IMG/VR virus record: IMGVR_UViG_2541047758_000014
Strand: one strand, 5' to 3'
Length of the DNA: 36,632 nt
From: a virus
Taxonomy: Duplodnaviria; Heunggongvirae; Uroviricota; Caudoviricetes
Shown here piece by piece: positions 4,564 through 35,891 of this stretch. The translations under genes were made by a program, and so were the position numbers. Under the pieces are notes generated by a model. The model was not told the DNA's origin. It searched no databases and saw only the letters and a program-made list of their open reading frames with translations. Position 1 is the first letter of the stretch. Each line of letters begins with the position of its first letter.

Positions 4564-4767
4564 ATGAACAAAAAGACCTGGTTTCGCGCATACATGTGGG
4601 TGCTGGTATGCGTCCTCGTCTCTCTCATTCTGTATGCAGGACTACTCCCCCGAATGATTTCATCAGACAGCTCCTTCCTGGTATTGCTGGGCATTTTCAT
4701 TGCCATGCTGTACCCGGCAGGCGTTGTTCGCCTTTTCAGTAAGTACATCAAGGAAATCAAACAATGA
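4564..4767 (+). CDS. Small two-helix membrane protein, possible partner of the downstream SPFH protein
   Basis: 67 aa; two hydrophobic segments (WVLVCVLVSLILYAGLL and FLVLLGIFIAMLYPAGVV); RBS aaggga; stop overlaps the next start. Confidence 0.55.
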   Translation: MNKKTWFRAYMWVLVCVLVSLILYAGLLPRMISSDSSFLVLLGIFIAMLYPAGVVRLFSKYIKEIKQ

Positions 4768-5594
4768 AGAAATTCAAACTCTTTCAGATTCTCCCGCTTT
4801 TTGCCGCCATCCTGCTGGTTGGCTGCGATCGCGTTGAGCCAGGTAATGTGGGCATCAAAGTCAACAAGCTGGGCGACGACAAAGGCGTTGGCGAAGTGGT
4901 TGGCGTTGGCCGCTACTGGACTGGCTGGAATACCGAGGTTTACATCTTCCCGACCTTCAAACAAATGAAGACCTACGATGAGCCGTTCAGCTTTCAGATG
5001 AGTGACGGCACAACCATCGGCTATCACATCGGCGTGGCTTACAAGGTTGATCCATCCAAAGTTACCACAGTGTTTCAGACCTACCGCAAAGGCGTGGATG
5101 ACATTACCGACACTGACCTGCGCCAGAAGATTGCCGATGCACTCAACCGACTGGCCAGCAAAATGACCACCGATAAGTTTATCGACGGTGGTAAGTCTGA
5201 ACTGCTGGATTCAGCACTTAAAGATATTCAGGAAGAGATGACCCCCATCGGCATTCAGGTCATGAGCCTCTCTTATGTCGGTAAACCGGAATATCCGCCA
5301 ACCGTTATCGACAGCATTAACGCCAAAGTCACGGCAAACCAGAAAACCCTGCAACGCGAACAGGAAGTCAAGCAACGCGAAGCAGAAGCCAACATGTTGC
5401 GCGCAGAAGCTGCCGGACAGGCTGATGCCATTCGCACAAAAGCCCAGGCTGAAGCCGACGCCATTCGTTTACGCGGTGAAGCTCTGCGCCAGAATCCCGG
5501 CGTTATGGAGCTGGAAGCAATCAACAAATGGAACGGCACGCTGCCGCAATACATGACCAGCAACACCGCTGTTCCGTTTGTTCCGGTGAAGTAA
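4764..5594 (+). CDS. SPFH/band-7 (prohibitin/stomatin-like) domain lipoprotein
   Basis: 276 aa; lipobox LLVGC at the N-terminus; central region and Ala/Glu/Gln-rich coiled coil typical of SPFH proteins. Confidence 0.7.
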   Translation: MKKFKLFQILPLFAAILLVGCDRVEPGNVGIKVNKLGDDKGVGEVVGVGRYWTGWNTEVYIFPTFKQMKTYDEPFSFQMSDGTTIGYHIGVAYKVDPSKVTTVFQTYRKGVDDITDTDLRQKIADALNRLASKMTTDKFIDGGKSELLDSALKDIQEEMTPIGIQVMSLSYVGKPEYPPTVIDSINAKVTANQKTLQREQEVKQREAEANMLRAEAAGQADAIRTKAQAEADAIRLRGEALRQNPGVMELEAINKWNGTLPQYMTSNTAVPFVPVK

Positions 5595-5963
5595 TTAAAC
5601 CCGGCCAGTGAAAATCGCTGGCCGGAGCAGTATCAGGATTTTTTTTAGTATGCCGTTCTCACAAAAAAACCGCTTGCCATGCCGCAATCAGTCAGGTTAC
5701 ATTTCCGCTGCACCTCATAAAACGGGTGCCGGGATTTCCACCCCGCTGACAACCAAAGCGCACAACCGCGCCAGCGGTTTTTTTGTGCGTACCGTATCGC
5801 CACGTCTTTTTCGCACACGAATTATGGTGGGGCGTATGGGGCCGACTTCGGTCGGGCCGGGTTCTTTGGTTGCCGGTTGTGGAAACCCTGTACGTCTCAC
5901 CACCCCGAGTTTTCCACCTCTGGATGGTGAGTTTTCAAAACTTACAACCAAAGAGGCCACACC

Positions 5964-6194
5964 ATGGCAAACCGCAAACAGCACCGCGCTATCGCGGAGC
6001 GTCGTCACATCCAGACTGAAATCAACCGCAGACTTTTCCGCGCATTCCGCGTCGCGCAAATCATGCACATCAATATGCTGCATGAACGCAGTCACGCACT
6101 ATCGAACAGCTATTCCGCCTCTGTTTTCAGCTATCTGGCGGATGATCTGCGCGAGCTTCAGCAGCTCATCCAGCAGCAAAACAAACTCCATTAA
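5964..6194 (+). CDS. Hypothetical small basic protein
   Basis: 76 aa ORF with RBS aaagagg 7 nt upstream; sits where P2-type phages carry small genes before A. Confidence 0.4.
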   Translation: MANRKQHRAIAERRHIQTEINRRLFRAFRVAQIMHINMLHERSHALSNSYSASVFSYLADDLRELQQLIQQQNKLH

Positions 6195-6266
6195 TTCCTG
6201 TTCCGGGCCTTTCCTGCACCTTGCGGCGGGAGGCCTTCGCACATCTGTAACAAGAGGATTGCCGCA

Positions 6267-6632
6267 ATGATTCTCGCCAACGACTTTCTTGAATACCTGC
6301 TCAACACAGAACGTGATCTTGCCGCTCGCGTGCGTGATCGTTATGACATGTACCTGAAATCCCTGCCTGTACCGCAGCTCGCTGACGGAAAGATTGTTAT
6401 TGATGGTCGCTACATGATTGACAGCCACGAGGGAAATTACAGGCTTTACCGCATTGAAGGTGGTACTCCGTCCGTTATTGGCATTTACCAGCGCCCATCC
6501 TCTGCAATCGTCGATGTGATTGCCGACAGCATCCGCATCACACATCGCCATGCCGACACAGAAGACACCGTGCTGGAAATTCAGCGGCTGGCTACAGTCT
6601 GCCGCGACACCCTGAATGGCATGACGAAGTAA
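6267..6632 (+). CDS. Hypothetical protein upstream of the replication gene
   Basis: 121 aa ORF with RBS aagagga; 6 bp before the gpA start. Confidence 0.5.
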   Translation: MILANDFLEYLLNTERDLAARVRDRYDMYLKSLPVPQLADGKIVIDGRYMIDSHEGNYRLYRIEGGTPSVIGIYQRPSSAIVDVIADSIRITHRHADTEDTVLEIQRLATVCRDTLNGMTK

Positions 6633-6638
6633 ATCACT

Positions 6639-9461
6639 ATGACGGCAGAGTACATCAGGGACTGGCAACAACCGCGCCACGCAGTGGGGCGTGAAGGAAC
6701 GGGGATCCCCGCTCCTGAATCCGCGCTTTCCTCCTGGCTGGATGCCTACCGGGTAGAGAACGAGCGCCGCCAGGAAATGGCTGATGCGGCGTTCTCCGCC
6801 ACGCCGCTGGGCAACCTGATTAATAAAAGCCTGGACGCACAGGAAAAACAGGACAAAACCATCACACTGGCAGGAGACGCCAGAAAACAGGCACGCGGCG
6901 CGGTGGATGAAGCCATGGCCTCGCTGCGCCTGCTGCCGTCCTATCTGCGCGATCCGCTTATTCGCCACCTCTCCTTCCTTCGCAAAAAACAGGAAGCCGA
7001 TCGCCGGAAAGGCAAAAAGAGCTGGCAGGCGGAACGCTATGCACGCGGAACCCTGCGCAAAATATTCGAACGTCTGGATCGCACTGACGGACGCTGGCTG
7101 ACACCGGGTTATCGCTCCCTTGCCGGACGCGAACGCCTGGACGATTTGCTTTACCTGCCGCAGCTCAACAAACACCAGATACAGACGCTGGCCACCATGA
7201 CGGCGGCGATGTTCAGCAGCACCTTCGAAAAACTCTGCGATGGCTTTGGCGCGACTGATGGCGAACTGACCATGGATGTAACGCTGAAGGCGTATCAGAT
7301 GCTGGCCCGCATGGCGTTACACCTGCACGCCATGCCTCCACATTATGACGCACTGACAACAGACAAAGACCGGAGGAACGAACCGGACACGGAGCTGCTG
7401 CCGGGCGCAATCCTTCGCCTGACCTGTGCGGAATGGTGGAAACGCAAACTGTGGCTGTTACGTTGCGAGTGGAGAGAAGAACAACTCCGCGCCGCCTGTC
7501 TGGTTTCCAGAAAAACATCACCCTATCTGAGCCAGGACGCGTTAAGCGAGTTTCGCGCACAGCGCGAGAAAACACGCGATTTCCTGAAAAGTTTCATGCT
7601 GGAAAATGAAGACGGGTTCACGATTGATCTCGAGACAGTGTATTACGCGGGAGTAAGTAACCCGGTTCACCGTAAGGCAGAAATGATGGCCACCATGAAG
7701 GGACTGGAACTTCTGGCCGAAGCCCGTGGCGACAGAGCGGTGTTTCTGACTGTCACCTGCCCGTCAAAATACCACGCAACAACGGAGAACGGTCATCCGA
7801 ACCCCAAATGGAACGGGGCCACCATGCGCGACTCCAGCGATTACCTGGTTAACACGTTTTTTGCGGCGGTCCGCAAGAAACTGAACCGCGACGGCCTGCG
7901 CTGGTATGGCATCCGCACGGTGGAGCCTCACCATGACGGCACCGTGCACTGGCATATGATGGTCTTTGCTCATCCGGAAGAAATCGACACCATTGTGTCC
8001 CACACCCGCGATATTGCCATTCAGGAAGATCGCCACGAGCTGGGCGATGATATTACTCCGCGCTTTAAGGCGGAGTACGTCGACGGCTCAAAAGGTACGC
8101 CAACCAGCTACATCGCCACCTACATCGGAAAGAACCTGGACAGCCGCGCCGTGGATGGTATCGACCCGAAAACGGGCAAGCCACGCGTTGACCACGAAAC
8201 CGGAAAATCAATGGCCGAGAGCGTGGAGCGCGCCATCGGCTGGGCGCGCCTTCACCGGGTCCGCCAGTTCCAGTTCTTTGGCATCCCCTCCCGTCAGGTG
8301 TGGCGTGAACTACGCCGCCTTGCCAGCCAGATGGCACGCAACCCGGAAGGCCCGCAACGGCTGAAGGATGACGCAATGGATGCGGTACTCGCTGCCGCTG
8401 ATGCCGGGTGTTTTGCCACCTACATTGAAAAACAGGGTGGCGTGCTTGTTCCACGCAAAGACTACCTGATTCGCACCGCCTACGACCTCGCAGAAGAGCT
8501 GAACGATTACGGCGAACAGAGCGTACAGATTTATGGGATCTGGTCACCACTCATCGGGGAATCCTCCCGTGTGTGCACGCATCCGGATAACTGGAAGCTG
8601 GTAAGACGCAAACCGGAAGCGGAAGACAGCACCCGCGAAAATGGTTTTGACCTTCAGGGCGGCCCTGCCGCCCCTTGGACTCGTGGCAATAACTGTCCCC
8701 GTGTACAGGAAACGAACAACAACGGGACAGAACAGCCGGAAGAACGGCCAGCACCGTGGCCGCAGCTCCCTGACGGCGTTGAAGTGAACGAATGGATGCG
8801 CTCACTGAAACGGCACGAACGCCGGGCGCTGATGCGTTCGCTTCGTGACAAACAGGCAAAAAACAGCAGCGATGAAATGCAGAGCTGGACACAGAGCCGC
8901 AAACAGCAGCGGCCTTTGCCTGATAACCACGAATTACTCGCTAAAGAATGGCGGGAGTCTGCTGAATCTCTCGGCCTGCATATCGGTGAACAACAGATGC
9001 AGCACCTGTTACGGGGCGGCAGTCTGTACGTTGACGGCAGCATCATTGCACCGCAGGGATTTGAAATTGTACGCAAACCGGATACCCGCCCGGACAGCCG
9101 AATCACGCAGCTCTGGCAGCGCCTGAGCCGTAATCACGGCGTAAGCAGCACGGAGATCCGCCATAACCCGGTCTCCAGCTATCTGGCACAGCTCGGGGCA
9201 TCAGACCCCGAAGCCGCCGCACGCCTGGCATCCACACTTCAGCAGGTCCAGAACACCATGAAAACACCCGTTACCGTGCTTTCTGACATGCTGCGCGCCA
9301 TTCGTGACGCAGAGCACGCACAGAGAATCAGAGAAACCACTGAACGCGCCCGCCGCAAAGCAAACCTGCTGAGGACTGGCCTGACCAGTGGAAACAAAAA
9401 ACAGACAGAAACGGGATTCACAAATCCCGTAAATGAGCAAAAAACGCGCCGCGATATATGA
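6639..9461 (+). CDS. A: Replication initiation endonuclease (P2 gpA / 186 A-like rolling-circle initiator)
   Basis: 940 aa; contains the HUH-type region HHDGTVHWHMMVFAHPEEI and Tyr-containing segment characteristic of P2 A; position after the early operon. Confidence 0.85.
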   Translation: MTAEYIRDWQQPRHAVGREGTGIPAPESALSSWLDAYRVENERRQEMADAAFSATPLGNLINKSLDAQEKQDKTITLAGDARKQARGAVDEAMASLRLLPSYLRDPLIRHLSFLRKKQEADRRKGKKSWQAERYARGTLRKIFERLDRTDGRWLTPGYRSLAGRERLDDLLYLPQLNKHQIQTLATMTAAMFSSTFEKLCDGFGATDGELTMDVTLKAYQMLARMALHLHAMPPHYDALTTDKDRRNEPDTELLPGAILRLTCAEWWKRKLWLLRCEWREEQLRAACLVSRKTSPYLSQDALSEFRAQREKTRDFLKSFMLENEDGFTIDLETVYYAGVSNPVHRKAEMMATMKGLELLAEARGDRAVFLTVTCPSKYHATTENGHPNPKWNGATMRDSSDYLVNTFFAAVRKKLNRDGLRWYGIRTVEPHHDGTVHWHMMVFAHPEEIDTIVSHTRDIAIQEDRHELGDDITPRFKAEYVDGSKGTPTSYIATYIGKNLDSRAVDGIDPKTGKPRVDHETGKSMAESVERAIGWARLHRVRQFQFFGIPSRQVWRELRRLASQMARNPEGPQRLKDDAMDAVLAAADAGCFATYIEKQGGVLVPRKDYLIRTAYDLAEELNDYGEQSVQIYGIWSPLIGESSRVCTHPDNWKLVRRKPEAEDSTRENGFDLQGGPAAPWTRGNNCPRVQETNNNGTEQPEERPAPWPQLPDGVEVNEWMRSLKRHERRALMRSLRDKQAKNSSDEMQSWTQSRKQQRPLPDNHELLAKEWRESAESLGLHIGEQQMQHLLRGGSLYVDGSIIAPQGFEIVRKPDTRPDSRITQLWQRLSRNHGVSSTEIRHNPVSSYLAQLGASDPEAAARLASTLQQVQNTMKTPVTVLSDMLRAIRDAEHAQRIRETTERARRKANLLRTGLTSGNKKQTETGFTNPVNEQKTRRDI

Positions 9462-9537: not shown

Positions 9538-10497
9538 ATGAAAATTTGTATCGACGACGGCTCCACCAACATCAAGCTGGCATGGACTGAGAATGGCGAA
9601 CGCCGCAACGCCATCAGCCCGAACAGCTTCAAGTCGGAATGGTCTGCGCCGTTCGGTGGCATGCAGCCCGCGAACTACATGCTTGATGGCGTGCGCTATG
9701 GTTTTGATCCGGTCAGCGATCGCTTTGTCCAGACGACCGACACGCAATACCAGTACAGCGATGTGAATGTAATCGCCATTCATCACGCGCTGGTCAAATC
9801 AGGCATCACGCCACAAGAGGTGGATGTGGTTGTCACCCTGCCACTGAGCGAGTATTTCGAGACAAACGCACAGCCGGACATGGCCAACATCAACCGCAAA
9901 AAAGCGAACGTTATGCGCTCGGTGGAGTACCAGAACGGCGAAGCATTCACTATCCGTAACGTGCGGGTTATGCCTGAATCCATTCCGGCTGGCTTTAAAG
10001 CACTGGCTGACATGAGTCCGTTTGAATCCCTGCTGATTGTGGATTTAGGCGGAACCACGCTGGATGTGGCAAAGGTTCAAGGGCAACTGGCAGGTATCAG
10101 CCAGGTGTTTTGCGATCCACACGTAGGCGTTTCCCTGATGGCCGATGCCGTACTGTCGGTGATGGCCACTAACGGTATGCGCACCAGTCACCACATCGCC
10201 AATACCATTATCGAACATCGCCATGATGAAGCCTGGCTGCGCCAGCACATCCACAATGACGCGCATTACGCCAGCCTGATGGCGGTTATTCGTGAAAAGG
10301 AAGAAACACTGAAACAACGCGTGATCCGCGCGCTGGCGGTTTTTTCGGGTTACGGGCGGGTGATGGTTGTCGGTGGAGGGGCGGAGATTGTGGCACCCGC
10401 TATCCGCGAAGTCTGCGGAGTTAATGCGACTTTCATCGCGGACGGGGTGCCACAGTTTGCTCTGGTTAATGGGCTGTACGCAATGGACAAGGAGTAA
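9538..10497 (+). CDS. parM: ParM/StbA-like actin-type partition ATPase
   Basis: 319 aa; N-terminus MKICIDDGSTNIKLAW and ISPNSFK...YSDVNVIAIHHAL closely resemble plasmid R1 ParM (MLVFIDDGSTNIKLQW...). Confidence 0.85.
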   Translation: MKICIDDGSTNIKLAWTENGERRNAISPNSFKSEWSAPFGGMQPANYMLDGVRYGFDPVSDRFVQTTDTQYQYSDVNVIAIHHALVKSGITPQEVDVVVTLPLSEYFETNAQPDMANINRKKANVMRSVEYQNGEAFTIRNVRVMPESIPAGFKALADMSPFESLLIVDLGGTTLDVAKVQGQLAGISQVFCDPHVGVSLMADAVLSVMATNGMRTSHHIANTIIEHRHDEAWLRQHIHNDAHYASLMAVIREKEETLKQRVIRALAVFSGYGRVMVVGGGAEIVAPAIREVCGVNATFIADGVPQFALVNGLYAMDKE

Positions 10498-10501
10498 ACC
10501 A

Positions 10502-10813
10502 ATGACGACACCAACCAGACGGATAAGTTTCTATCTGAAGCCTGCGGCCGTCAAGAACGAAAGCGAAGCATGCGCCTGGCTGGACAGCCTTACACCAGAA
10601 GCCCGCAAAAGCGGCCAACGCGTGGCTTTTCTGGCTGGGCTGGCACTTCTGAAAATGAATCCAGCAGAGGCTTACCGACTGGCTGCATGGGCTGACGATG
10701 AGGCGTTATCCGTGACACAAACCAGGACTGAACGCCCCGTGTCACAGCCAGTACCAACCGCACAGATAACCAATCAGATGGCCGGAAATATCAGGGCGTT
10801 ATTCCCCGAATAA
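10502..10813 (+). CDS. parR: ParR-like centromere-binding adaptor
   Basis: 103 aa; start at ATG 10502 inside track ORF 10367..10813; RRISFYLKPAAV...AFLAGLALLKMNP resembles R1 ParR; sits directly downstream of parM as in the R1 par operon. Confidence 0.7.
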   Translation: MTTPTRRISFYLKPAAVKNESEACAWLDSLTPEARKSGQRVAFLAGLALLKMNPAEAYRLAAWADDEALSVTQTRTERPVSQPVPTAQITNQMAGNIRALFPE

Positions 10814-11044
10814 GGCAATACGGTGAAGCATCCCCAGGGGAAGTGAAGCTAAACTTAAGAGGGGCGGATATAGACGCCCCGATTCACAGAAAAATTTATT
10901 GAATTTGAACGTTTTCAACGTTATGTTTTACGCAGATTTCAAGGTTTTGGGGATTTAGAGGCGGCCCCCCAAAAGTTGATACCGCCTAGTTGGTAACTTC
11001 GTCGTCAGACTGGGACTCCAACCACGCCAGCTGAGAGGTTGGCG

Positions 11045-11851
11045 CTATTTTTTACGCAAAGGGGGTAATTTATATCGCAAATTAACCTCTTTCGTTTCAA
11101 TATCTCTTGGCCCCTTCTTTTTATCAAAAAACAACCAGATATTGAATTTTCGCTCTGTCGGCCAGGTATCGTGCCGTAATGATTCCCACCCAAGATAAGA
11201 AGCGATTTTCTCTGCCATAGCCAGTTTCGCTGGAGAAGTGGCTTTCCTTTGATATGCACACATGACAGCCCCTAATAAAAAATCGACAAGCTGAATATGT
11301 TCCGATGTTTTTGAGTCTTTTGTTTCAACTAGTTTAATTATGTCCTTGCGCCCATATTTTCGGGCCAGAGAATGGTTGGCAATTATGTGAAACTCTTCAT
11401 CGGCTTTTTTGTAACGAGATGGCAGGGGATCAACTTCTATAAGGAACTCACATTCCGCATGAGGCCACCTTTGGATCACGTTACCTATTTTTGTTTCAAT
11501 AAGCTTGCAAAAATGCTTACGCATTGCAAGATCATAATCCCCACCATGATATGATTTTTCTACTTTAGACTTCTCAACAATAATACAGTGAAAAGCCATC
11601 CAGTTGTGCCTAAAAAACACATCAATGACGTCGCTATAAAAAGCTGCATTACGCTTTGAATGTGCTTTCTGCCATTTGAGCTCATCACTGCATCCATGCT
11701 TTTTTCTCAAATCCTGTACCATGCGAGTGAGTTCAGCGCGCCTCTGATAGCTCATCCAGAGACTCCCAAACCCGTAGAATGGCTGCCCATCAACGCCAGA
11801 TTCATCACAGGCAACATGCCATATCATTTTTTTCTGATTGTTATCTTTCAT
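11045..11851 (-). CDS. DUF3800-like protein, candidate anti-phage or accessory cargo at the A-Q hotspot
   Basis: 268 aa; N-terminal WHVACDESG and C-terminal IQLVDFLLGAV motifs as I recall for DUF3800; gene is clearly more AT-rich than the phage backbone; opposite strand to its neighbours. Confidence 0.6.
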   Translation of the reverse strand: MKDNNQKKMIWHVACDESGVDGQPFYGFGSLWMSYQRRAELTRMVQDLRKKHGCSDELKWQKAHSKRNAAFYSDVIDVFFRHNWMAFHCIIVEKSKVEKSYHGGDYDLAMRKHFCKLIETKIGNVIQRWPHAECEFLIEVDPLPSRYKKADEEFHIIANHSLARKYGRKDIIKLVETKDSKTSEHIQLVDFLLGAVMCAYQRKATSPAKLAMAEKIASYLGWESLRHDTWPTERKFNIWLFFDKKKGPRDIETKEVNLRYKLPPLRKK

Positions 11852-12010
11852 TGGTCTTGGGTTCTGGGGACTAAACGTGCTGCATCTAATTTAATCACAC
11901 ACATAACCTACTGATAAAGATCATTTTTATTCCTGTCTCTCACCAAATGGGTATTGAGAATGACCACCTGAACACACTGAAATAAAGGCGAAAATCATGT
12001 ATCGCCCTGC

Positions 12011-12040
12011 TGCACAATAGTGCACAAATTTGCACAATTT
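12011..12040. repeat. Three tandem 10-bp repeats (TGCACAA-N3), helically phased
   Basis: tgcacaatag / tgcacaaatt / tgcacaattt at 12011..12040; a fourth TGCACAAA at 12103..12110 and GGATCCGT twice at 12081..12088 and 12092..12099. Confidence 0.7.
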
Positions 12041-12420
12041 TTTTGAACGACTTTTTGCCCTTCCGGCCCCCGTGGCGGCTGGATCCGTCAAGGATCCGTG
12101 CGTGCACAAAAAAACGCGTTTTTTCTGCGCGCAGGTGACGGGGGAACAGCCCGCGTTTCAGGGGGTAAATAGCATTCCCTGAGCGATGTCGCAGCGACAC
12201 AACAGAATGGCTGTATTTCTCACGCTGAGCGTGAAAAAGACGTAAGGGTTTTTGATTTGATGGGTTGAAAGGTAAGGCCGTCAAAATCGCACTGAGGCGG
12301 CGAGAACATACAGTCAACGCGGTGGGATTGCGTAAGAGTCTGACCGTCGATGGTGGCGATAAACTGGAAGGCGTCGTGAAATTATCTGATTGATACAGGA
12401 GCTGGAGAGTCGGGGCATAA

Positions 12421-12445
12421 ATTTTTTATGCCCCGGCGAAGCAGC
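12421..12445. terminator. Perfect 11-bp-arm hairpin just downstream of the portal gene
   Basis: cggggcataaa-ttt-tttatgccccg at 12421..12445; no clean T-run, so terminator role is uncertain. Confidence 0.35.
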
Positions 12446-12461
12446 AGACAAGCGAAGCGCG

Positions 12462-13508
12462 TCAGGCTGTGGGCTGGGTGTCTAACAGTGCGTAAGGGTT
12501 AAAGCGGATCACCTCTTCGCCCAGCCAGTCATTGATGTGCTTCATGGCCTCCATGACGGGCATCAGCTCGTTAATTGCGTAAACCCGCGCGGCCTTCTCC
12601 ACATCACCAAACGCACTTTTTTCACCCGGCATCGCCCCCATCAGTTGCGGCGGAACGCGGTGCGCAGCCAGCACATCATCACGGGATGCCGCCTTAACAT
12701 TCATGAACTCATCCTTTGCGGTGATCTGCTGGAACGGCAAAATTTGCACCCCCTCTTTGCCCCCGTTGGGCGCATGAATGAGCACGTTTTTAAACGCACC
12801 ACCACCACGTGCCCCCTGTAGCGTTTCTTTCAGGGAGTCCATGCTTTCGCGGTTTACCTGCGCTGCACCGATGTAGATGATGCACCCGGCGTGGGATCCG
12901 TTGTCGTAATACAGTTTTCTGAACATGTCCGCCGAATGAGACAGGCTGGCCGAGAGTAATGCGCCGAGATATTCCGGCATGCCGTAGATTTCCTGGTTAA
13001 TGTCAGGATTCATCAGGTGGCACACTTTGCCAGGGCGAAACTGAAACGCATCCTTGCCATCCTGCACATACCACCATGATTCAAGATCGCTTCCGCGTCG
13101 CATGTATTTCGCCAGTGCGTGCCGTAATTTAAGCGGTTCGCCGAGCATATTGCTTCGAAGCTCAAGGAATGCGTTACCGAACACAAACCAGTCCAGCGCC
13201 AGCGCCGAGAAATCCTGCCGGGAAAGCAGCGGGTGCGGGATGTAGCAGCCGAGTAATACATTGCGCTTAAAGTAAAGCGCAGACTGATGCCAGGACGTTT
13301 GCCGGGCAGCTCTTGCCAGACCGTACCAGTCTACCGGGGTTTCATACCACCGCCCGTTATCAGCACAGTACATATTGTCCAGCAGATCATGCCCGGTCAG
13401 GCGATAAGGACCATCAAATGTGAATGCACTGAGCGATGATTCTTTCCTGAGCGCATCAGCGAGATCAATGCGTGAACTCATGCGCACTTTTTTATTTTTT
13501 CTGCTCAT
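12462..13508 (-). CDS. Q: Portal protein (P2 gpQ-like)
   Basis: 348 aa; size, position next to the terminase and sequence consistent with P2 Q; start overlaps the P stop. Confidence 0.9.
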   Translation of the reverse strand: MSRKNKKVRMSSRIDLADALRKESSLSAFTFDGPYRLTGHDLLDNMYCADNGRWYETPVDWYGLARAARQTSWHQSALYFKRNVLLGCYIPHPLLSRQDFSALALDWFVFGNAFLELRSNMLGEPLKLRHALAKYMRRGSDLESWWYVQDGKDAFQFRPGKVCHLMNPDINQEIYGMPEYLGALLSASLSHSADMFRKLYYDNGSHAGCIIYIGAAQVNRESMDSLKETLQGARGGGAFKNVLIHAPNGGKEGVQILPFQQITAKDEFMNVKAASRDDVLAAHRVPPQLMGAMPGEKSAFGDVEKAARVYAINELMPVMEAMKHINDWLGEEVIRFNPYALLDTQPTA

Positions 13509-23670: not shown

Positions 23671-25524
23671 ATGAGTACCACAACACGAAAATTTAAAACC
23701 GTTATCACCGATACGGGTGCAAAAAAATTAGCGCAGGCAGCCGCGCCAGATGGTAAGCCTGTCCGCCTGACTCATATGGCCGTGGGCGACGGTGGCGGTA
23801 CATTGCCCACACCTGACAGTAAGCAGACCCGTCTGGTGCATGAGGTGTGGCGACATACTGTTAATCGCGTCATCCTGGACGCAACACATCAGAACCGCAT
23901 TATTGCAGAGCTGGTTATTCCTCCTGAAACGGGCGGATTCTGGATCCGGGAAATTGGTGTATTTGATGAGCACGGCGATTTAATCGCGGTGGGCAATACT
24001 GCCGAAAGTTACAAGCCAGCCGTTGCCGAAGGGTCCGGTCGTGCACAAACATTTCGCACCATTCTGACCGTATCCAGCACAGCCACCGTGGCGCTTACCG
24101 TGGATAACACCATGGTGATGGCCACAGTGGATTACGTGGATGACAAACTGAAAGAGCATGAACAGTCACGACGTCACCCGGACGCCTCGCTGACCGCAAA
24201 AGGCTTTGTTCAACTCAGTAGCGCCACCAACAGCGCGTCTGAAACGCAGGCTGCAACGCCGAAAGCAGTAAAGGCCGCGTATGACCTTGCTAACGCAAAA
24301 TATACCGCTCAGGACGCCACGACGGCACAAAAAGGGATAGTCCAGCTCAGTAGTGCCACCAACAGCACGTCTGAAACACTGGCCGCGACATCGAAAGCGG
24401 TTAAGGCGGTAATGGATGAAACGAACAAGAAAGCGCCCTTAAACAGTCCTGCGCTGACCGGAACGCCAACAACGCCAACTGCGCGACAGGGAACGAATAA
24501 TACCCAAATCGCAAGCACGGCTTTCGTTATGGCTGCGATTGCCGCCCTTGTAGATTCGTCACCTGACGCACTGAATACGCTGAACGAGTTAGCGGCGGCG
24601 CTGGGAAACGACCCGAATTTTGCGACCACCATGACTAACGCGCTTGCGGGTAAGCAACCGAAAGATGCCACCCTGACGGCGCTGGCCGGGCTTGCTACTG
24701 CGGCAGACAGGTTTCCGTATTTTACGGGGAATGATGTCGCCAGCCTGGCACCCCTGACAAAAGTCGGGCGGGATATTCTTGCGAAATCGACCGTTGCTGC
24801 CGTTATCGAATACCTCGGTTTACGAGAACTCGGCACAAGCGGGGAGAAAATACCGTTACTCAGTACAGCGAATACCTGGACCAATCGACAAACATTCAGC
24901 GGTGGCCTTTCTGGGGAACTGTCCGGCAATGCCGCTACTGCAACAAAGCTGAAAACAGCACGAAAAATTGCTGGAGTTGGTTTTGATGGTTCTAGCGATA
25001 TTTCAATTAGTGCCAAAAATGTCAATGCATTTGCACTCCGACAAACAGGTAATACTGTTAATGGTGATACATCCGTTGGATGGAATTGGGATAGTGGTGC
25101 ATATAACGCCATGATTGGTGGTGCATCTGCATTAATTCTTCACTTTAATATAAATGCTGGTAGCTGTCCTGCCGTACAATTCCGTGTGAATTATAAAAAT
25201 GGTGGCATTTCCTACAGGTCGGCTCGTGATGGTTATGGGTTTGAATTAGGTTGGTCAGATTTCTATACCACGACACGAAAACCTTCAGCGGGAGATGTTG
25301 GTGCATATACGCGGGCAGAATGTAACTCAAGGTTTATTACAGGTATTCGCCTTGGCGGTCTGTCATCTGTTCAGACATGGAATGGTCCCGGCTGGTCTGA
25401 CAGGTCAGGTTATGTCGTTACGGGTTCAGTTAACGGAAACCGTGATGAATTAATTGATAAAACACAGGCAAGGCCAATTCAGTATTGCATTAATGGGACG
25501 TGGTATAACGCGGGGAGTATTTAA
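23671..25524 (+). CDS. H: Tail fibre protein (P2 gpH-like); variable C-terminal part lies on the invertible segment
   Basis: 617 aa; internal duplication QLSSATNS-SET-AAT-KAVKA; C-terminus RPIQYCINGTWYNAGSI parallels the alternative cassette on the other strand. Confidence 0.85.
   Translation: MSTTTRKFKTVITDTGAKKLAQAAAPDGKPVRLTHMAVGDGGGTLPTPDSKQTRLVHEVWRHTVNRVILDATHQNRIIAELVIPPETGGFWIREIGVFDEHGDLIAVGNTAESYKPAVAEGSGRAQTFRTILTVSSTATVALTVDNTMVMATVDYVDDKLKEHEQSRRHPDASLTAKGFVQLSSATNSASETQAATPKAVKAAYDLANAKYTAQDATTAQKGIVQLSSATNSTSETLAATSKAVKAVMDETNKKAPLNSPALTGTPTTPTARQGTNNTQIASTAFVMAAIAALVDSSPDALNTLNELAAALGNDPNFATTMTNALAGKQPKDATLTALAGLATAADRFPYFTGNDVASLAPLTKVGRDILAKSTVAAVIEYLGLRELGTSGEKIPLLSTANTWTNRQTFSGGLSGELSGNAATATKLKTARKIAGVGFDGSSDISISAKNVNAFALRQTGNTVNGDTSVGWNWDSGAYNAMIGGASALILHFNINAGSCPAVQFRVNYKNGGISYRSARDGYGFELGWSDFYTTTRKPSAGDVGAYTRAECNSRFITGIRLGGLSSVQTWNGPGWSDRSGYVVTGSVNGNRDELIDKTQARPIQYCINGTWYNAGSI
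24802..24827. other. gix/hix-like crossover site inside H (left end of invertible segment)
   Basis: ttatcgaatacctcggtttacgagaa matches the reverse complement of the 27481..27506 site at 21 of 26 positions with a perfect 11-bp core cctcggtttac. Confidence 0.7.
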
Positions 25525-25526
25525 CG

Positions 25527-26060
25527 ATGATGCACTTAAAAAACATTACTGCTGGCAACCCTAAAACAAAAGAGCAATACCAGCTAACAAAGCAATTTAA
25601 CATCAAATGGCTTTATTCAGATGATGGAAAAAACTGGTATGAGGAACAAAAGAATTTCCAGCCAGACACTTTGAAAATGGTCTATGACCATAACGGCGTT
25701 ATTATTTGTATTGAAAAGGATGTTTCAGCAATTAATCCGGAAGGCGCAAGCGTCGTTGAATTACCTGATATTACAGCAAATCGCCGGGCTGATATTTCGG
25801 GGAAATGGTTGTTCAAAGATGGCGTAGTGATAAAGCGAACTTATACCGAGGAAGAGCAGAGGCAACAAGCGGAAAATGAAAAGCAAAGCCTGTTGCAACT
25901 TGTCAGGGATAAAACCCAGCTATGGGACTCACAGCTACGGCTGGGCATCATTTCCGACGAGAATAAACAAAAATTAACCGAGTGGATGCTCTATGCGCAG
26001 AAAGTCGAATCTACAGACACCTCCAGCCTGCCAGTAACGTTTCCCGAACAACCAGAATGA
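25527..26060 (+). CDS. G: Tail fibre assembly protein (P2 gpG-like)
   Basis: 177 aa; N-terminus [22 protein letters not shown] conserved with the inverted copy. Confidence 0.8.
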   Translation: MMHLKNITAGNPKTKEQYQLTKQFNIKWLYSDDGKNWYEEQKNFQPDTLKMVYDHNGVIICIEKDVSAINPEGASVVELPDITANRRADISGKWLFKDGVVIKRTYTEEEQRQQAENEKQSLLQLVRDKTQLWDSQLRLGIISDENKQKLTEWMLYAQKVESTDTSSLPVTFPEQPE

Positions 26061-26062
26061 GA

Positions 26063-26090
26063 GAAGGCCCGATATTGGGCCTTAATTTTT
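26063..26090. terminator. Bidirectional hairpin between convergent G and G'
   Basis: aaggccc-gatatt-gggcctt at 26064..26083 followed by aattttt. Confidence 0.5.
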
Positions 26091-26616
26091 ACTCAGGCTT
26101 TTGTGGCCATTCGGGATTTGCTGTATCCACACGGCTGACCAGAACGCTGTAGCGTTCCCATGACTCCAGTCGTGTGCGTTCCTCATCCGTCGCCATATTC
26201 AGCCTGACAGCGCGTTCCAGTGGCTGAATAACGCTTTCAGCTTCAGAAAGCAACGCGACCTTTTGTGATTCGGCCTGTTGTTGCTGTTCGTCTGCTGTAT
26301 AAATCCGCTTAACCACAGTTCCGTTCTTAAACATCCACTTCCCTGAATCATCGGCACGACGATTGGCTGTTATATCTGGAATCTCAACGACACTAAAGCC
26401 TTCGGGATTAAGCGTTGAGGCATCTTTGGTTATGGCAACAATAATATTATTTTCGTCGTATACAATCTTTATGGTGTCGTCCTGAAAGTTATTTACTTCC
26501 TCATACCAGTTTTTACCGTCTTCGGACCATAACCAGATAACATCAAAATTCTTTGTTAGCTGATATTGTTCTTTTGTTTTTGGATTTCCGGACTTAATAT
26601 TTTTTAAATGCTGCAT
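26089..26616 (-). CDS. Alternative tail fibre assembly protein (G')
   Basis: 175 aa; [24 protein letters not shown]... paralogous to G, opposite strand. Confidence 0.8.
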
Positions 26617-26619
26617 AAT

Positions 26620-27498
26620 TTACACCTGTGCGACGTTATACCATGTGCCATTGATGTATTTTTGTATTGGTCTGAAGATGGCTTCATCATCGCCATCTAC
26701 TTCACCAATGATTCTTAATCCGGTAATTGCGTGTCCGGCTTTTTCATAACGACCACCACGCGCCATCAATTGAACAACACGCGTACCCAGGCGAACATCT
26801 TTTACATAGCGTGAATCAAAATTCCCCCAGTTGCTGGGCTGTATCTGACCGTTAACAGAAAATATTACCGAGTTATCTGTATTTCGCTGGCTATAGAAAT
26901 GCCATCCTGCCTCATCGCCTAACTCTGCAACTACTGGACGGGTTGAAGCACCCCATAAATTAAACGTTGCATTCTTTGTGGAGGTGTTGGAGCTGGATAG
27001 CGAGAACTTTTTACTATCACCTGCCTGAATGTTTTTAAAAGCAATAGCAACTCCATTCTGAAAGCGGAATACTCGCTGACTATTAGCGTAAACATCCAGA
27101 ATGCCATCACCATTCTGTTTGAATCCGGTGTCATTATCACCAAGAACAATAGAGCTACCACCTAACGCATTCGTCGTACCAACTCCAAGACTGCCATTAA
27201 TGACGGCATTTACCAGAATATTTAGTGCATCCCATTTCAGCGTCATCAGGTCTTTTGTTGTGGTGCTCTGGCGGCTTCTCCATTTGAAATATTCATTGCC
27301 GTTGTCGCCTGTTTCAAACCACATGTATGAATCAGTGTCACCATCAGCATCATTTTTAAATCCAATCTTCGCCCAGTCAGTATTTCGAATCCAGGCAAGG
27401 ATTGAGTCATTTTCAAAAGTAAGCCCACCGGACAAGGTATCGCCATTTTTTTGCACGGCGTTACCAGCCCTGTTTACCGTTTCCTGTAAACCGAGGTT
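26620..27498 (-). CDS. Alternative tail fibre C-terminal cassette (promoterless; fused to H constant part after inversion)
   Basis: Track ORF 26620..27456; frame stays open upstream through the gix site to 27498; C-terminus RPIQKYINGTWYNVAQV parallels H. Confidence 0.7.
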   Translation of the reverse strand, partial: NLGLQETVNRAGNAVQKNGDTLSGGLTFENDSILAWIRNTDWAKIGFKNDADGDTDSYMWFETGDNGNEYFKWRSRQSTTTKDLMTLKWDALNILVNAVINGSLGVGTTNALGGSSIVLGDNDTGFKQNGDGILDVYANSQRVFRFQNGVAIAFKNIQAGDSKKFSLSSSNTSTKNATFNLWGASTRPVVAELGDEAGWHFYSQRNTDNSVIFSVNGQIQPSNWGNFDSRYVKDVRLGTRVVQLMARGGRYEKAGHAITGLRIIGEVDGDDEAIFRPIQKYINGTWYNVAQV

Positions 27499-27506
27499 TT
27501 AAATAA
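27481..27506. other. gix-like crossover site (right end of invertible segment)
   Basis: ttcctgtaaaccgaggttttaaataa, nearly identical to the Mu gix sequence as I recall it (TTCCTGTAAACCGAGGTTTTGGATAA). Confidence 0.75.
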
Positions 27507-27542
27507 TGGCCGTTTCTGGCCTGCATGGCATGATTTGCGCTT

Positions 27543-28160
27543 TTGGACGGGAGATTCAGTGTGCTGATTGGCTATGTAAGGGTATCAACAAATGACCAGA
27601 ATACAGACCTGCAACGAAACGCTCTTGTTTGTGCAGGATGTGAACAAATATTTGAAGATAAATTAAGCGGGACAAAGACAGACCGACCGGGATTAAAACG
27701 CGCTTTAAAGCGCCTTCAAAAAGGTGACACGCTGGTTGTCTGGAAACTGGATCGCCTCGGGCGAAGCATGAAACATCTGATTTCTCTCGTCGGGGAACTA
27801 CGGGAGCGAGGGATTAATTTTCGCAGTCTGACCGACAGCATAGACACATCTTCTCCAATGGGGCGTTTTTTCTTCCACGTGATGGGTGCCCTGGCTGAAA
27901 TGGAACGTGAATTAATTGTTGAACGTACACTGGCCGGGCTGGCGGCAGCGCGCGCAAGGGGGCGCACAGGCGGACGTCGACCGAAGCTGACAAAAGAACA
28001 GCATGAGCAAATAGCAAGGCTAATCAAAAACGGGCACGACAGAAAACAACTGGCAATAATTTACGGCATTGGCACATCGACGATTTATCGTTATCACCCT
28101 GTAGGCGATATACAGACTGAAGAAACAACCGGGCAGACTCAGGAAAATGAAAACCGCTAA
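27543..28160 (+). CDS. Serine DNA invertase (Gin/Pin/Cin/Hin family)
   Basis: Contains LIGYVRVSTNDQNTDLQRNAL, the conserved N-terminus with the catalytic Ser, and a C-terminal HTH; track start is non-ATG (TTG at 27543), GTG at 27561 is a likely true start. Confidence 0.85.
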   Translation: MDGRFSVLIGYVRVSTNDQNTDLQRNALVCAGCEQIFEDKLSGTKTDRPGLKRALKRLQKGDTLVVWKLDRLGRSMKHLISLVGELRERGINFRSLTDSIDTSSPMGRFFFHVMGALAEMERELIVERTLAGLAAARARGRTGGRRPKLTKEQHEQIARLIKNGHDRKQLAIIYGIGTSTIYRYHPVGDIQTEETTGQTQENENR

Positions 28161-35225: not shown

Positions 35226-35891
35226 ATGAATATGCAAATTTTTATCGCACCAGCAGCCACAGTTGCTGCAGTCTGCCTTGCTGCATATTTTGCTTTACGA
35301 AATGAACGTAAAAAGAAAGCACTTGAGATTAGAACAACTCAACTAGATCGAATATCAGAGCTAGTAAACCGAGCATCTACCAATTTGATGCAATATACAG
35401 GTACTCTTGCCTCTATACTGGAAGCGCACGCCAAAGATAATTATCTACCGAACAAAAAATTTGACATTAATGTAATTAGCAAATGGAAAGATTGCCTCGA
35501 TGAGAGTGAGGTCTGGGCGATTGATAGACAGCAACTAAGAACATGTCAGCACAGTCTGGAGTTTCATCGTGAAAAAGAATGGGCTGAATGGAAAAAAATA
35601 ATTCCACCATTACTTGATAAAATTGACCAATTTTTTCTCATATCTAAGCCAGGGCAACCTGTTACGTTTATAAATGGCCAAAACAAAACAGCTGATGAAC
35701 TACTTGTTTTCTCAAGATATTTGAGAAAACAAACAGCAGAAATTGAATCAGTACGTCAGCTGTTACTTTCTCAAATGAGAGAGGAATTCATCGAGTTAAC
35801 TAGCTTTGAACCTGTCACAATGTTTAGCTTATTTAAATCAATAAAGAAAAATGTCATGCAATTTTTCTGTATCAGTGCTCTTAAAAATTGA
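35226..35891 (+). CDS. AT-rich moron: N-terminally membrane-anchored protein of unknown function
   Basis: 221 aa; N-terminal TM IFIAPAATVAAVCLAAYFAL; markedly AT-rich; own RBS (aagga) and downstream terminator; inserted between D and ogr. Confidence 0.6.
   Translation: MNMQIFIAPAATVAAVCLAAYFALRNERKKKALEIRTTQLDRISELVNRASTNLMQYTGTLASILEAHAKDNYLPNKKFDINVISKWKDCLDESEVWAIDRQQLRTCQHSLEFHREKEWAEWKKIIPPLLDKIDQFFLISKPGQPVTFINGQNKTADELLVFSRYLRKQTAEIESVRQLLLSQMREEFIELTSFEPVTMFSLFKSIKKNVMQFFCISALKN

Follow-up and report, generated by a model that had tools for sequence, protein, structure and literature searches.

Background

What does a lone AT-rich gene do in the cargo slot of a P2-type prophage, and is it really alone there? 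The question arises from a window of 36,632 nucleotides (IMG/VR record IMGVR_UViG_2541047758_000014), the whole stretch of DNA analysed here, for which a sequence-only reading had proposed that a DUF3800-like gene in the A-to-Q interval is an uncharacterised single-gene defence or exclusion factor. DUF3800 proteins are encoded in retrons, beside the genes of Cas12a and Cas13, in defence islands and by phages, and the family is, as that reading had stated, still without an established function. A second puzzle is the 6S RNA of phage lambda, which has been known since 1971. The locus described here joins both puzzles in E. coli, the most tractable host.

Results and discussion

The cargo and its place in the phage genome

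The window contains a P2-type E. coli prophage that is P88-like (Peduoviridae). The phage is not a canonical P2, and partition genes lie between A and the cargo. The assignment of AT-rich foreign cargo to a known hotspot was nevertheless correct. The cargo lies between gpA and gpQ, differs among related phages and agrees with the definition of the cos-proximal gpA-gpQ hotspot by Rousset et al. 2022, whose Table S5 contains the same arrangement ('StbA + DUF3800 + Plasmid_stab_B'). A terminase gene is also found among the neighbours of the cargo in the window.

Sequence identity to P88, Shae_phiSM and PhiR44_2, all of which carry different genes in this slot, stops at 10813 and resumes at 12007-12011. 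This comparison sets the cargo boundaries at 10814 and ~12006-12010, so that only positions 10814-12010 of the interval initially described (10814-12461) are cargo, and 12011-12461 belong to the conserved backbone (Table 1). The GC content follows the same limits, with 0.408 in the ORF and 0.423 in the cargo versus 0.565 and 0.536 in the flanking backbone. The DUF3800 gene is the only ORF in the cargo. Among 5,426 complete E. coli genomes, 38 contain the whole cassette with at least 99% identity, and the isolated phage Chuche carries it with 98% identity.

Table 1. Features of the gpA-to-portal region (positions in the window)
Feature	Position	Strand	Evidence or remark
gpA	6639-9461		left neighbour gene
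ParM/StbA and StbB partition genes	9538-10813	+	ParM 9538-10497, StbB ends at 10813; Pfam StbA_N/ParM and Plasmid_stab_B; PHROG partition proteins
Cargo cassette (variable insert), ~1.2 kb	10814 to ~12010		in the gpA/ParM/StbB-to-portal interval
G+C-rich hairpin just past the stbB stop codon	10861-10880		flagged on the - strand by a terminator-like scan
Putative sigma-70-type promoter of the small RNA	10899-10927	+	TTGAAT, 17 nt, TATGTT
Lambda-6S-like structured RNA, ~118 nt	~10934-11053	+	convergent with the DUF3800 gene; forms its 3' flank
P0 pseudoknot of the RNA	10945-10952 x 10967-10974	+	
H1 of the RNA	10960-10964 x 10982-10986	+	
H2 of the RNA, with inner stem	10989-10993 x 11018-11022	+	
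H3 terminator hairpin of the RNA	11025-11044	+	terminator scan
U-run of the RNA	11048-11053	+	
DUF3800-family gene, 268 aa	11045-11851	-	RNase HII-like fold; stop codon (11045-11047) between H3 hairpin and U-run of the RNA
DUF3800 gene promoter (predicted)	11889-11917	-	-35 TTATCA (11912-11917), 17 nt, TG-extended -10 TTAAAT (11889-11894; TG 11896-11897)
Conserved phage backbone, cos-proximal region	12011-12461		outside the cargo; 92-98% identical in P88-like phages with other cargo
Portal gene (gpQ)	12462-13508	-	Pfam Phage_portal; portal annotation in relatives; right border of the interval

The DUF3800 gene and its protein

The AT-rich minus-strand ORF was confirmed as a gene, and its tentative family assignment could be turned into a firm one, as the Pfam profile DUF3800 (PF12686) matches residues 15-196 with E 3.5e-10 and a score of 41.2 bits, well above its cut-off of 21. 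Both motifs that had been noticed in the translation are real. DESG comprises residues 16-19 and QLVD residues 187-190, and 36 diverse homologues show no variation at D16, E17, S18, G19, Q187 and D190. The acidic site, consisting of D16, E17, D141 and D190, is intact, and D141 is invariant as well. The gene is under purifying selection, since protein identity is still 62-76% where synonymous third positions have reached saturation at 42-57%. The protein belongs to phrog_3732, a PHROG separate from that of P1 RlfA. In the upstream DNA, which is otherwise unalignable among five lineages, the predicted promoter is the sole conserved block.

The structure model of the protein is confident, and its top fold matches are RNase HII/H2/H3 and PIWI. 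Membership in RNase HII is not indicated by the sequence searches: no Pfam RNase H family matched, and phmmer and profile searches of the PDB sequences gave nothing significant. Nor does the PDB contain a more closely related structure or sequence, as the weak matches to AriB and a BEN domain are not significant. Placement in a housekeeping family had been named beforehand as the outcome of a profile search that would speak against a defence factor; the search led to DUF3800 instead, and the likeness to RNase H lies in the fold only. Housekeeping RNase HII and RNase H2 share about 10% identity with the protein, which differs from them by an extra C-terminal helical region and by its mobile and sporadic distribution.

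A conserved RNA convergent with the gene

The cargo had been described as a single gene in hairpin-rich non-coding flanks. The hairpins are indeed present, but the 3' flank is a second conserved component of the cargo, a convergent RNA. Comparative sequence analysis identifies this element of approximately 118 nt as a conserved RNA with a pseudoknot and two hairpins. Its last hairpin and the U-run constitute a predicted terminator that overlaps the stop codon of the DUF3800 gene. Hexamers equivalent to those of its putative promoter occur with the same 17-nt spacing in other non-lambdoid copies (TTGAAG/TATGCT, TTGAGT/TATTAT and TTGAAT/TATTTT), and the spacers have diverged.

In the alignments, 95.9% and 96.7% of the RNA pairs are paired, versus 87.6% and 84.1% in shuffles (0/500) and 26-58% in slid controls. 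Compensatory changes were detected at 12 pairs, in the pseudoknot at six of nine, and P0 alone is realised by at least nine different complementary sequence pairs. The identity of the element (72-90%) exceeds that of the saturated synonymous sites (42-57%) and of the upstream DNA (37-44%). Since thermodynamic stability alone does not distinguish the element from shuffles (z = -1.4 to -0.7), the evidence for the structure is comparative and not thermodynamic.

Rfam contains no match to the RNA in the window region or in related loci, neither at the gathering score nor at E<=10. ARAGORN finds no tRNA or tmRNA in the element, and a peptide-coding role was rejected, as there is no plus-strand ORF of at least 20 amino acids. 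The pseudoknot sequence UUUUGGGR was considered as a general mark of DUF3800-linked RNAs, but different pairs are present in Sodalis, the L223 group and PHL101, so that the sequence is typical of a single clade.

Homology to the lambda 6S RNA

The RNA in the window aligns with positions 44646-44709 of lambda (81% identity over 62 nt, BLAST). The covariance model R1, which matches the window at 10936-11050 with 117.8 bits, scores 97.8 bits on lambda. The closest known RNAs are the lambda 6S RNA (the PR' leader) and StxS of Stx phages, and the window RNA has H1-H3 and the covarying pseudoknot in common with the 6S body. Judged by sequence and covariation together, the window RNA is a homologue of the body of the PR' 6S leader RNA of lambda. 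The promoter scan also recovers TTGACT-17-TAAATT upstream of the lambda copy, at the expected place of PR'. According to Sy et al. 2020, lysogens contain large amounts of short PR' transcripts, and no function has been assigned to 6S.

In lambdoid relatives the RNA occupies the same place as 6S, approximately 115 nt downstream of Q, and in the relatives L009, L018, L196 and L223 it lies downstream of Q and upstream of the late (lysis) genes. In contrast, the window has neither a Q gene nor late genes downstream of the RNA, and the element is situated between stbB and the convergent gene. It also has a predicted promoter of its own. Its end is at H3, and the lambda copy runs about 50 nt further to its own terminator hairpin and T-run (tR'). 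The DUF3800-linked copies constitute a P0 class distinct from the lambda-type copies.

Linkage of the RNA and the gene

In viral contigs, the RNA is convergent with and abuts the stop codon of 73 of the 74 evaluable phage-borne DUF3800-family genes, in a redundant sample with 50 distinct RNA sequences among the 73. The linkage is found in lambdoid Q-lysis sites as well as in non-lambdoid contexts, namely loci of the window type, the int side in Salmonella, an Enterobacter island and the Mannheimia P2-like phage PHL101. In PHL101 the RNA is still linked at 43% protein identity and shows compensatory changes in every helix. In a scan with DNA patterns, the 33 DUF3800-linked copies that it detected all belong to one P0 class, and the scan found DUF3800 next to none of 108 lambda-type copies; these copies, at least 108 in number, lie downstream of Q genes. 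Chimeras of a lambda-type 5' half with DUF3800 were not found, despite a near-identical core of ~60 nt that should permit recombination.

Both components also occur alone. Three P2-like prophages have kept the RNA and lack the gene. Vice versa, family members are present in bacterial defence islands without the RNA, and with search filters off no RNA was detected beside the family members in Vibrio, Aeromonas, Shewanella, Pseudoalteromonas, Pyrinomonadaceae and P1. The existence of RNA-less family members implies that the protein does not need the RNA. Moreover, since the gene and the RNA physically overlap, linkage alone could keep the pair together. In one lambdoid group a terminator lies ahead of the structured domain.

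Comparison with known systems

The closest known relatives of the protein are RlfA of P1 and RapA of P7, which are full-length homologues (HHalign probability 98.9% and 26% identity for RlfA). RlfA and the window protein have in common the CDES and QLxD motifs, an Asp after strand 4 and a KFNI motif, and both genes are phage-borne and non-essential; rlfA and rlfB are dispensable for lytic growth of P1. The window protein matches the PADLOC candidate PDC-M04A (PDLC04353) with E 2.6e-35 and RlfA does so with E 1e-95; in P1 the next gene encodes RlfB, which corresponds to PDC-M04B (E 1e-51). An RlfB-like partner (PDC-M04B) was not found among the ORFs of the interval or the neighbours of the relatives examined, and the ORFs that follow RNA-less homologues match Drt1b-like, PDC-S52 and PDC-M65 models and not RlfB.

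Weinberg et al. 2017 described 11 unrelated structured RNAs that accompany DUF3800 genes in either orientation, several of them ending in a terminator. The present element resembles these in being a conserved RNA of complex structure, and not a 5' UTR element, next to a DUF3800 gene on the opposite strand, with an intrinsic terminator at its end; linkage to 73 of 74 phage-borne genes, covariation and the terminator place it in this class. However, none of the covariance models for DUF3800-I to -XI, drum and skipping-rope RNAs (RF02969, RF02968 and others) matches here, even at E<=10. The element also differs by its composition of an H-type pseudoknot and two hairpins, by its occurrence in temperate phages of Enterobacterales and Pasteurellales and by its many homologues away from DUF3800, the lambda-type leaders.

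DUF3800 serves as effector in type VII retrons, and some Cas12a and Cas13 loci include it as an accessory protein. Type VII retrons and the TPR-DUF3800 proteins of Cas12a2/a3 and type VI-F loci combine, as does the present locus, a DUF3800 protein of RNase H fold with a non-coding nucleic-acid component. In the retron-linked proteins the Q of QxxD is missing and the site is DEED, while the window family has QxxD and Asp. The cargo contains no reverse transcriptase, msr/msd, CRISPR array, cas gene or TPR domain. In type III toxin-antitoxin systems of the ToxIN type, the antitoxin is an RNA with tandem repeats, encoded on the same strand as the toxin gene and upstream of it. The layout in the window is different, since a single copy of the RNA lies downstream of the gene and convergent with it.

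With P2 old/tin and the other validated hotspot cargos (Rousset et al. 2022) the cassette shares the gpA-gpQ slot, the AT-richness, an own promoter and the variability among phages. The protein is unrelated to OLD, an ATPase-Toprim protein, and the DUF3800 cargo is separated from gpA by the partition genes. The DUF3800 and P2-hotspot literature that we examined reports no anti-phage phenotype of DUF3800 cargo.

Possible functions of the locus

With a probability of roughly 0.45, we read the interval as a mobile two-part module made up of an RNase H-fold effector for inter-phage conflict and a cis-linked regulatory RNA. The DUF3800 protein would act in conflicts between phages by exclusion or abortive infection, as a nuclease on RNA or RNA-DNA hybrids. 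Its gene would be read leftward from an extended -10 promoter of its own, which makes synthesis of the protein in the lysogen probable. Where the module is phage-borne, the convergent RNA might be a cis-linked regulator or antidote of DUF3800 that base-pairs with the 3' end of the DUF3800 mRNA, acts through convergent transcription, binds the protein or combines these modes of action. As the RNA doubles as the late-operon leader in lambdoid carriers, antiterminated late transcription would run antisense through the DUF3800 gene and could switch it off during the lytic growth of the carrier itself. The nuclease activity and its substrate, the anti-phage role and the regulatory role of the RNA are what we infer from the fold, the associations and the linkage described above. 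If the RNA controls the nuclease, phage-borne immunity would here follow a new logic by which the carrier is spared; otherwise, the element still represents a pseudoknotted RNA that is widespread in lambdoid late leaders and had not been catalogued before.

A defence role of the protein is plausible by association. Homologues are encoded in Q-to-lysis moron sites of E. coli, Serratia and Sodalis prophages, at prophage ends, and in defence islands next to ThsB, a Drt1b-like gene, PtuA/PtuB, PDC-M65 and PDC-S52, i.e. among Thoeris, Septu, DRT-like and PDC genes. Against this stands that defence has been shown experimentally for no DUF3800 protein and that PDC-M04 is only a candidate.

It is possible, although less probable, that the gene is a single-gene defence system as originally proposed and that the RNA is a hitch-hiking lambdoid late-operon leader with a tR'-type terminator, acquired from the original insertion site and retained as terminator or insulator of the gene or for its own 6S-type function. 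The RNA would then have moved into P2-type phages together with the gene because the two overlap. The 108 copies without DUF3800 downstream of Q genes, lambda included, fit such a history, and so do the RNA-less family members in defence islands and the RNA-only remnants. Furthermore, lambda-type copies and copies linked to DUF3800 agree in those unpaired stretches of the RNA that are conserved best, which suggests that they share a partner other than DUF3800. However, the promoter and all helices have been kept, the latter via compensatory changes, in four non-lambdoid contexts without a Q gene; a role as terminator needs H3 alone and not a pseudoknotted RNA of 118 nt under purifying selection; and chimeras between a lambda-type 5' half and DUF3800 are missing.

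We consider it unlikely that the protein serves the carrier phage itself, by processing or turning over the leader or late transcript or RNA-DNA hybrids (primers, R-loops) during its own replication or late expression. The full-length homology to RlfA ('replication-linked function') and RapA, which are encoded in a lytic replicon operon, the RNase H2-like fold of the model and the constant proximity of the gene to the late leader RNA in lambdoid phages would agree with such a function. Yet the gene is cargo that most P88-like, P2-like and lambdoid relatives lack, and it has a promoter of its own and is not encoded on the strand of the lytic operons. Moreover, relatives of it are present in non-phage defence islands, and P1 can do without rlfA and rlfB for lytic growth. 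Even less probable is an addiction module without an anti-phage role, in which a nuclease and an RNA in a type I/III-like relation would stabilise the prophage or a plasmid-like state. Systems of the txpA/RatA type are 3'-overlapping type I toxin-antitoxin pairs, and the convergent, overlapping layout of RNA and gene bears an analogy to them. The cargo also adjoins the ParM/StbB partition genes, and a DUF3800 gene scored essential alongside antitoxins in a Legionella Tn-seq study, so that the polarity of toxin and antidote could even be opposite to our proposal. In contrast, the module also occupies numerous sites that have no relation to partition genes. The protein does not belong to the small membrane toxins, the RNA contains no repeat array, and the persistence of RNA-less homologues in islands argues against an intrinsically lethal protein.

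The idea of a two-part module can be extended to the lambda-type copies, though the extension is improbable. Lambda-6S-type leaders would be dedicated partners of DUF3800 nucleases, acting as antidote or switch in carriers, where the RNA would hold the effector silent until it is needed and through the carrier's own lytic cycle, while the copies without DUF3800 would be decoys against the nucleases of resident prophages. If true, this would give a counter-defence function to the 50-year-old orphan 6S RNA and would explain the recruitment of structured RNAs by DUF3800 genes across bacteria. For work on these alternatives the locus offers a 1.2-kb cassette with native promoters, the phage Chuche, natural RNA-only and protein-only variants and a model of covarying helices.

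Other features of the interval

The G+C-rich hairpin behind stbB is possibly a terminator of the partition operon, of read-through from the DUF3800 gene, or of both, and it is not conserved in lambdoid relatives. In the backbone segment 12011-12461, small ORFs have no PADLOC match. The likeness of this segment to the cos sequences of P2 and 186 is only partial. The record of Xuanwuvirus P884B11 begins at window position ~12056, which is compatible with a genome end at this site.

The DUF3800 cargo and its boundaries

The window corresponds approximately to a whole P88-like prophage (Xuanwuvirus, Peduoviridae), and Escherichia phage Chuche is 98% identical to it over the region tested. The DUF3800 ORF has gpA, ParM/StbA and StbB as left neighbours and the portal and terminase genes as right neighbours. 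Judged by P88, Shae_phiSM and PhiR44_2, each of which carries other content in the same slot, the insert runs from 10814 to ~12006-12010. The cargo therefore amounts to 1.2 kb, and the remainder of the interval considered by the sequence-only reading (10814-12461), namely 12011-12461, is conserved backbone. That variable cargo is carried here is borne out by these relatives and by the work of Rousset et al. 2022, who placed the P2 hotspot in the cos-proximal gpA-gpQ interval. Their Table S5 includes the arrangement 'StbA + DUF3800 + Plasmid_stab_B', while their main text nowhere mentions DUF3800; the DUF3800 cargo was thus already in the literature as a catalogue entry.

The AT-rich, opposite-strand gene proposed earlier is present (GC 0.408 vs 0.565 in the left and 0.536 in the right backbone), and its assignment to DUF3800 from the DESG and QLVD motifs was correct. 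The protein scores 41.2 bits with the Pfam DUF3800 profile (threshold 21), both motifs (D16-E17-S18-G19 and Q187-L-V-D190) are invariant across 36 diverse aligned homologues, and sequence searches did not place it among the housekeeping RNases H. There are 184 homologues at E ≤ 1e-5; among the matches listed, they are nearly all standalone proteins of ~260-290 aa, chiefly from Gammaproteobacteria. When a profile was run against 1.84 billion cluster representatives, the matches numbered 78 clusters with E ≤ 1e-30 and 1,461 with E ≤ 1e-3.

Features of the phage genome and of the DUF3800 cargo
Feature	Position	Strand	Remarks
Integrase gene	1011-2138
SPFH/Band 7 family protein	4764-5594	+	early region, just upstream of C4/isrK RNAs
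isrK (64.3 bits) and C4 antisense RNA (80.5 bits), Rfam	5710-5907	+	overlapping ORF 5608-6270
ParM/StbA and StbB partition genes	9538-10813		between gpA and hotspot
RNA promoter, predicted	10899-10927	+
Pseudoknotted RNA	~10934-11053	+	~118 nt
Apical part of hairpin H3	11031-11039
DUF3800-family ORF	11045-11851	-	268 aa
DUF3800 gene promoter, predicted	11889-11917	-	conserved, TG-extended -10 type
GATC (Dam) site	11919-11922		one base upstream of -35 box of DUF3800 promoter
Invertible tail-fibre switch	23671-28160		second AT-rich stretch
Gin/Cin-type resolvase-invertase	27543-28160		end of tail-fibre switch
221-aa ORF	35226-35891	+	just past tail gene D; GC 0.36-0.39

The protein also matches the PADLOC candidate component PDC-M04A (E 2.6e-35). 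Since RlfA of phage P1 hits the A models of this system at 1e-95 and RlfB the B models at 1e-51, PDC-M04 is identified as the P1 RlfA/RlfB pair. The window protein aligns with RlfA over its full length and has the catalytic motifs in common with it; the gene is a Pfam DUF3800 member, sister to the RlfA (PDC-M04A) branch. However, PDC-M04 is defined by two genes, and no RlfB-like ORF was found among the ORFs of the cargo. In P1, rlfA and rlfB are dispensable for lytic growth. Of five lineages compared, three have the Dam site next to the DUF3800 promoter at this position.

A conserved structured RNA at the 3' end of the gene

The cargo had been described as a single gene with hairpin-rich flanks. 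Gene and hairpins are there, but the 3' flank is a second conserved component. About 113 nt of non-coding DNA just past the stop codon recur in E. coli beside a different DUF3800 gene, which lies between Q and the holin gene of lambdoid prophages and whose protein is only 63% identical, with the DNA element being 77% identical. The element was present at the 3' end of the gene in every enterobacterial homologue locus fetched: beside a P2/186-type integrase in Salmonella, in a degraded island in Enterobacter and in lambdoid prophages of Serratia. Between loci it is 72-90% identical, compared with 42-57% at synonymous third positions and 37-44% in the upstream DNA, both of which are saturated.

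The core of the element matches lambda 44646-44709, between the Q and S genes, which we take from the lambda map to lie within the PR'-initiated 6S leader. A promoter scan found TTGACT-17-TAAATT upstream of the lambda copy at the place expected for PR', and in the alignment the homologous part is followed by the terminator hairpin and T-run of lambda (its tR'). Sigma-70 hexamers with a 17-nt spacing are retained upstream of non-lambdoid copies even though the spacer sequences differ.

Four helices were tested in 37 non-redundant copies: the pseudoknot helix P0, in which a 5' segment pairs with the loop of H1, the hairpin H1 (GGCGG/CCGCC), the two-part hairpin H2 and the terminal hairpin H3. 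In these copies 95.9% of the cells are paired, vs 87.6% in shuffles (0/500) and 30-58% with slid partners, and compensatory changes occur in 12 pairs, six of them within the nine-pair P0 helix. Fifty distinct sequences gathered independently, starting from the protein, gave 96.7% vs 84.1% in shuffles and 12 compensatory pairs, in an alignment that was fitted to the model and thus favours the structure. The two strands of P0 occur in no fewer than nine different combinations of complementary sequence. As a single sequence the element is not unusually stable, and neither a tRNA, an ORF nor an Rfam family match was found in it. The covariance model was calibrated quickly, and its E-values are rough.

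In the window, H3 and the following U-run are a predicted terminator, and the DUF3800 stop codon lies between its stem and the U-run. The apical part of H3 is nearly invariant in all copies and resembles a Shine-Dalgarno sequence (GCUGAGAGGU; GCUGGGAGGU in the L223 group).

Linkage between the RNA and the DUF3800 gene

Scanning public collections with the core pattern gave 165 matches, among them a handful by chance and some from lambda DNA contaminating unrelated assemblies. A convergent DUF3800 gene was present in 33, absent in 109 and not evaluable in 23. All 33 linked copies belong to one P0 class, (U)UUUGGGR/YCCCAAA, of which L128 is the sole evaluable unlinked copy, resembling the RNA-only remnants L005 and L006; of the 108 lambda-type copies, 96 are found downstream of a Q gene. 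Starting from the protein, 73 of 80 family loci on viral contigs had the RNA, in each case convergent with the gene and directly next to it; of the other seven, six are cut off by the contig edge and one, a Vibrio-type gene (L233), has no RNA. The samples are phylogenetically redundant. Antiterminator genes of at least five kinds precede linked pairs, which are also found at Q-less sites (par-cos in the window, the int side in Salmonella, the Enterobacter island and the Mannheimia P2-like phage PHL101). In PHL101 the pair lies between the cI operon and tail gene D; its protein is 43% identical, and all RNA helices are preserved via compensatory changes.

No such RNA was detected, even with search filters off, beside members from Vibrio, Aeromonas, Shewanella, Pseudoalteromonas, Pyrinomonadaceae and P1. 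The RNA-less loci of Vibrio, Aeromonas and Pseudoalteromonas lie among defence genes: ThsB and a Drt1b-like gene; PDC-S52; and Septu PtuA/PtuB with PDC-M65, the last inside Tn7-like cargo.

Three P2-like prophages (L005 at 5000-5116, L006, L128) possess the DUF3800-type RNA and promoter (93% identical) and no gene. The identity reaches precisely to the former stop codon, with loss of the U-run. The gene that comes next is Ogr/Delta-like and lies on the opposite strand. In lambdoid loci with a Q of PF03589 (L224, L232, L256, L258 and related), an intrinsic terminator (CCCGC...GCGGG plus U-run) lies ~30 nt upstream of the model match, directly before the structured domain, so that transcription of the domain may require antitermination there. 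The lambda-type element, with the exact lambda sequence, is present on small low-coverage contigs (L028, L029, L031, L035, L036, L044 and others) whose assemblies belong to unrelated taxa, such as Pseudoxanthomonas, Oceanobacillus, Psychrobacter and Tardiphaga; these contigs look like lambda contamination.

Possible function and alternatives

Sequence comparison shows the cargo to be a mobile unit of four parts: the predicted RNA promoter, the ~118-nt RNA, the DUF3800 gene and its predicted promoter. We tentatively infer, with a probability of roughly 45%, that the protein would act as an effector nuclease in conflict between phages and that the cis-linked RNA would be its regulator in the phage-borne copies. 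The geometry is convergent, and the RNA is therefore antisense to any DUF3800 transcript passing the stop codon. Late transcription in lambdoid carriers, once antiterminated, has to traverse the gene in antisense, which would let the carrier turn the gene off while it grows lytically. The chief alternative, somewhat less probable, is that the protein works alone and the RNA is the late leader and terminator that travelled with it. The abundance of the RNA without DUF3800 and the occurrence of the protein without the RNA speak for it; yet the full structured RNA and its promoter are kept in Q-less contexts, and no chimeras exist despite a near-identical core of ~60 nt.

A function for the phage itself seems improbable, and a pure addiction module more improbable still. 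In Legionella Tn-seq a DUF3800 gene scored essential alongside antitoxins, which warns against presuming the polarity of any toxin/antidote relationship.

The published record gives DUF3800 an RNase H fold and no assigned function, and connects it with 11 different structured RNAs (Weinberg 2017), with type VII retrons, and with Cas12a2/a3 and type VI-F loci. Functionally the window RNA groups with those of Weinberg 2017, although no curated family matches it. It is homologous to the 6S RNA of lambda, which has no known function, but in the window it does not have the position that defines a late leader. No description of the RNA, its pseudoknot, the 6S homology or the DUF3800 coupling was found in Rfam 15 or in the DUF3800, StxS/6S and P2-hotspot literature examined.

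Other features of the prophage

Because partition genes and an integrase coexist in this phage, the question of a plasmid-like state arises for P88-like phages. The isrK and C4 matches, above the gathering score and within or beside an Ash-family ORF, represent a c4 antisense-RNA immunity element of the P1/P7 type, here carried by a phage of P2 type. The 221-aa ORF, without a Pfam or PADLOC match, is a candidate second cargo at the same genome end as the DUF3800-RNA module of PHL101. The tail-fibre switch comprises a tail-fibre gene, a tail-fibre assembly gene and, on the other strand, an inverted alternative fibre C-terminus with its assembly gene.
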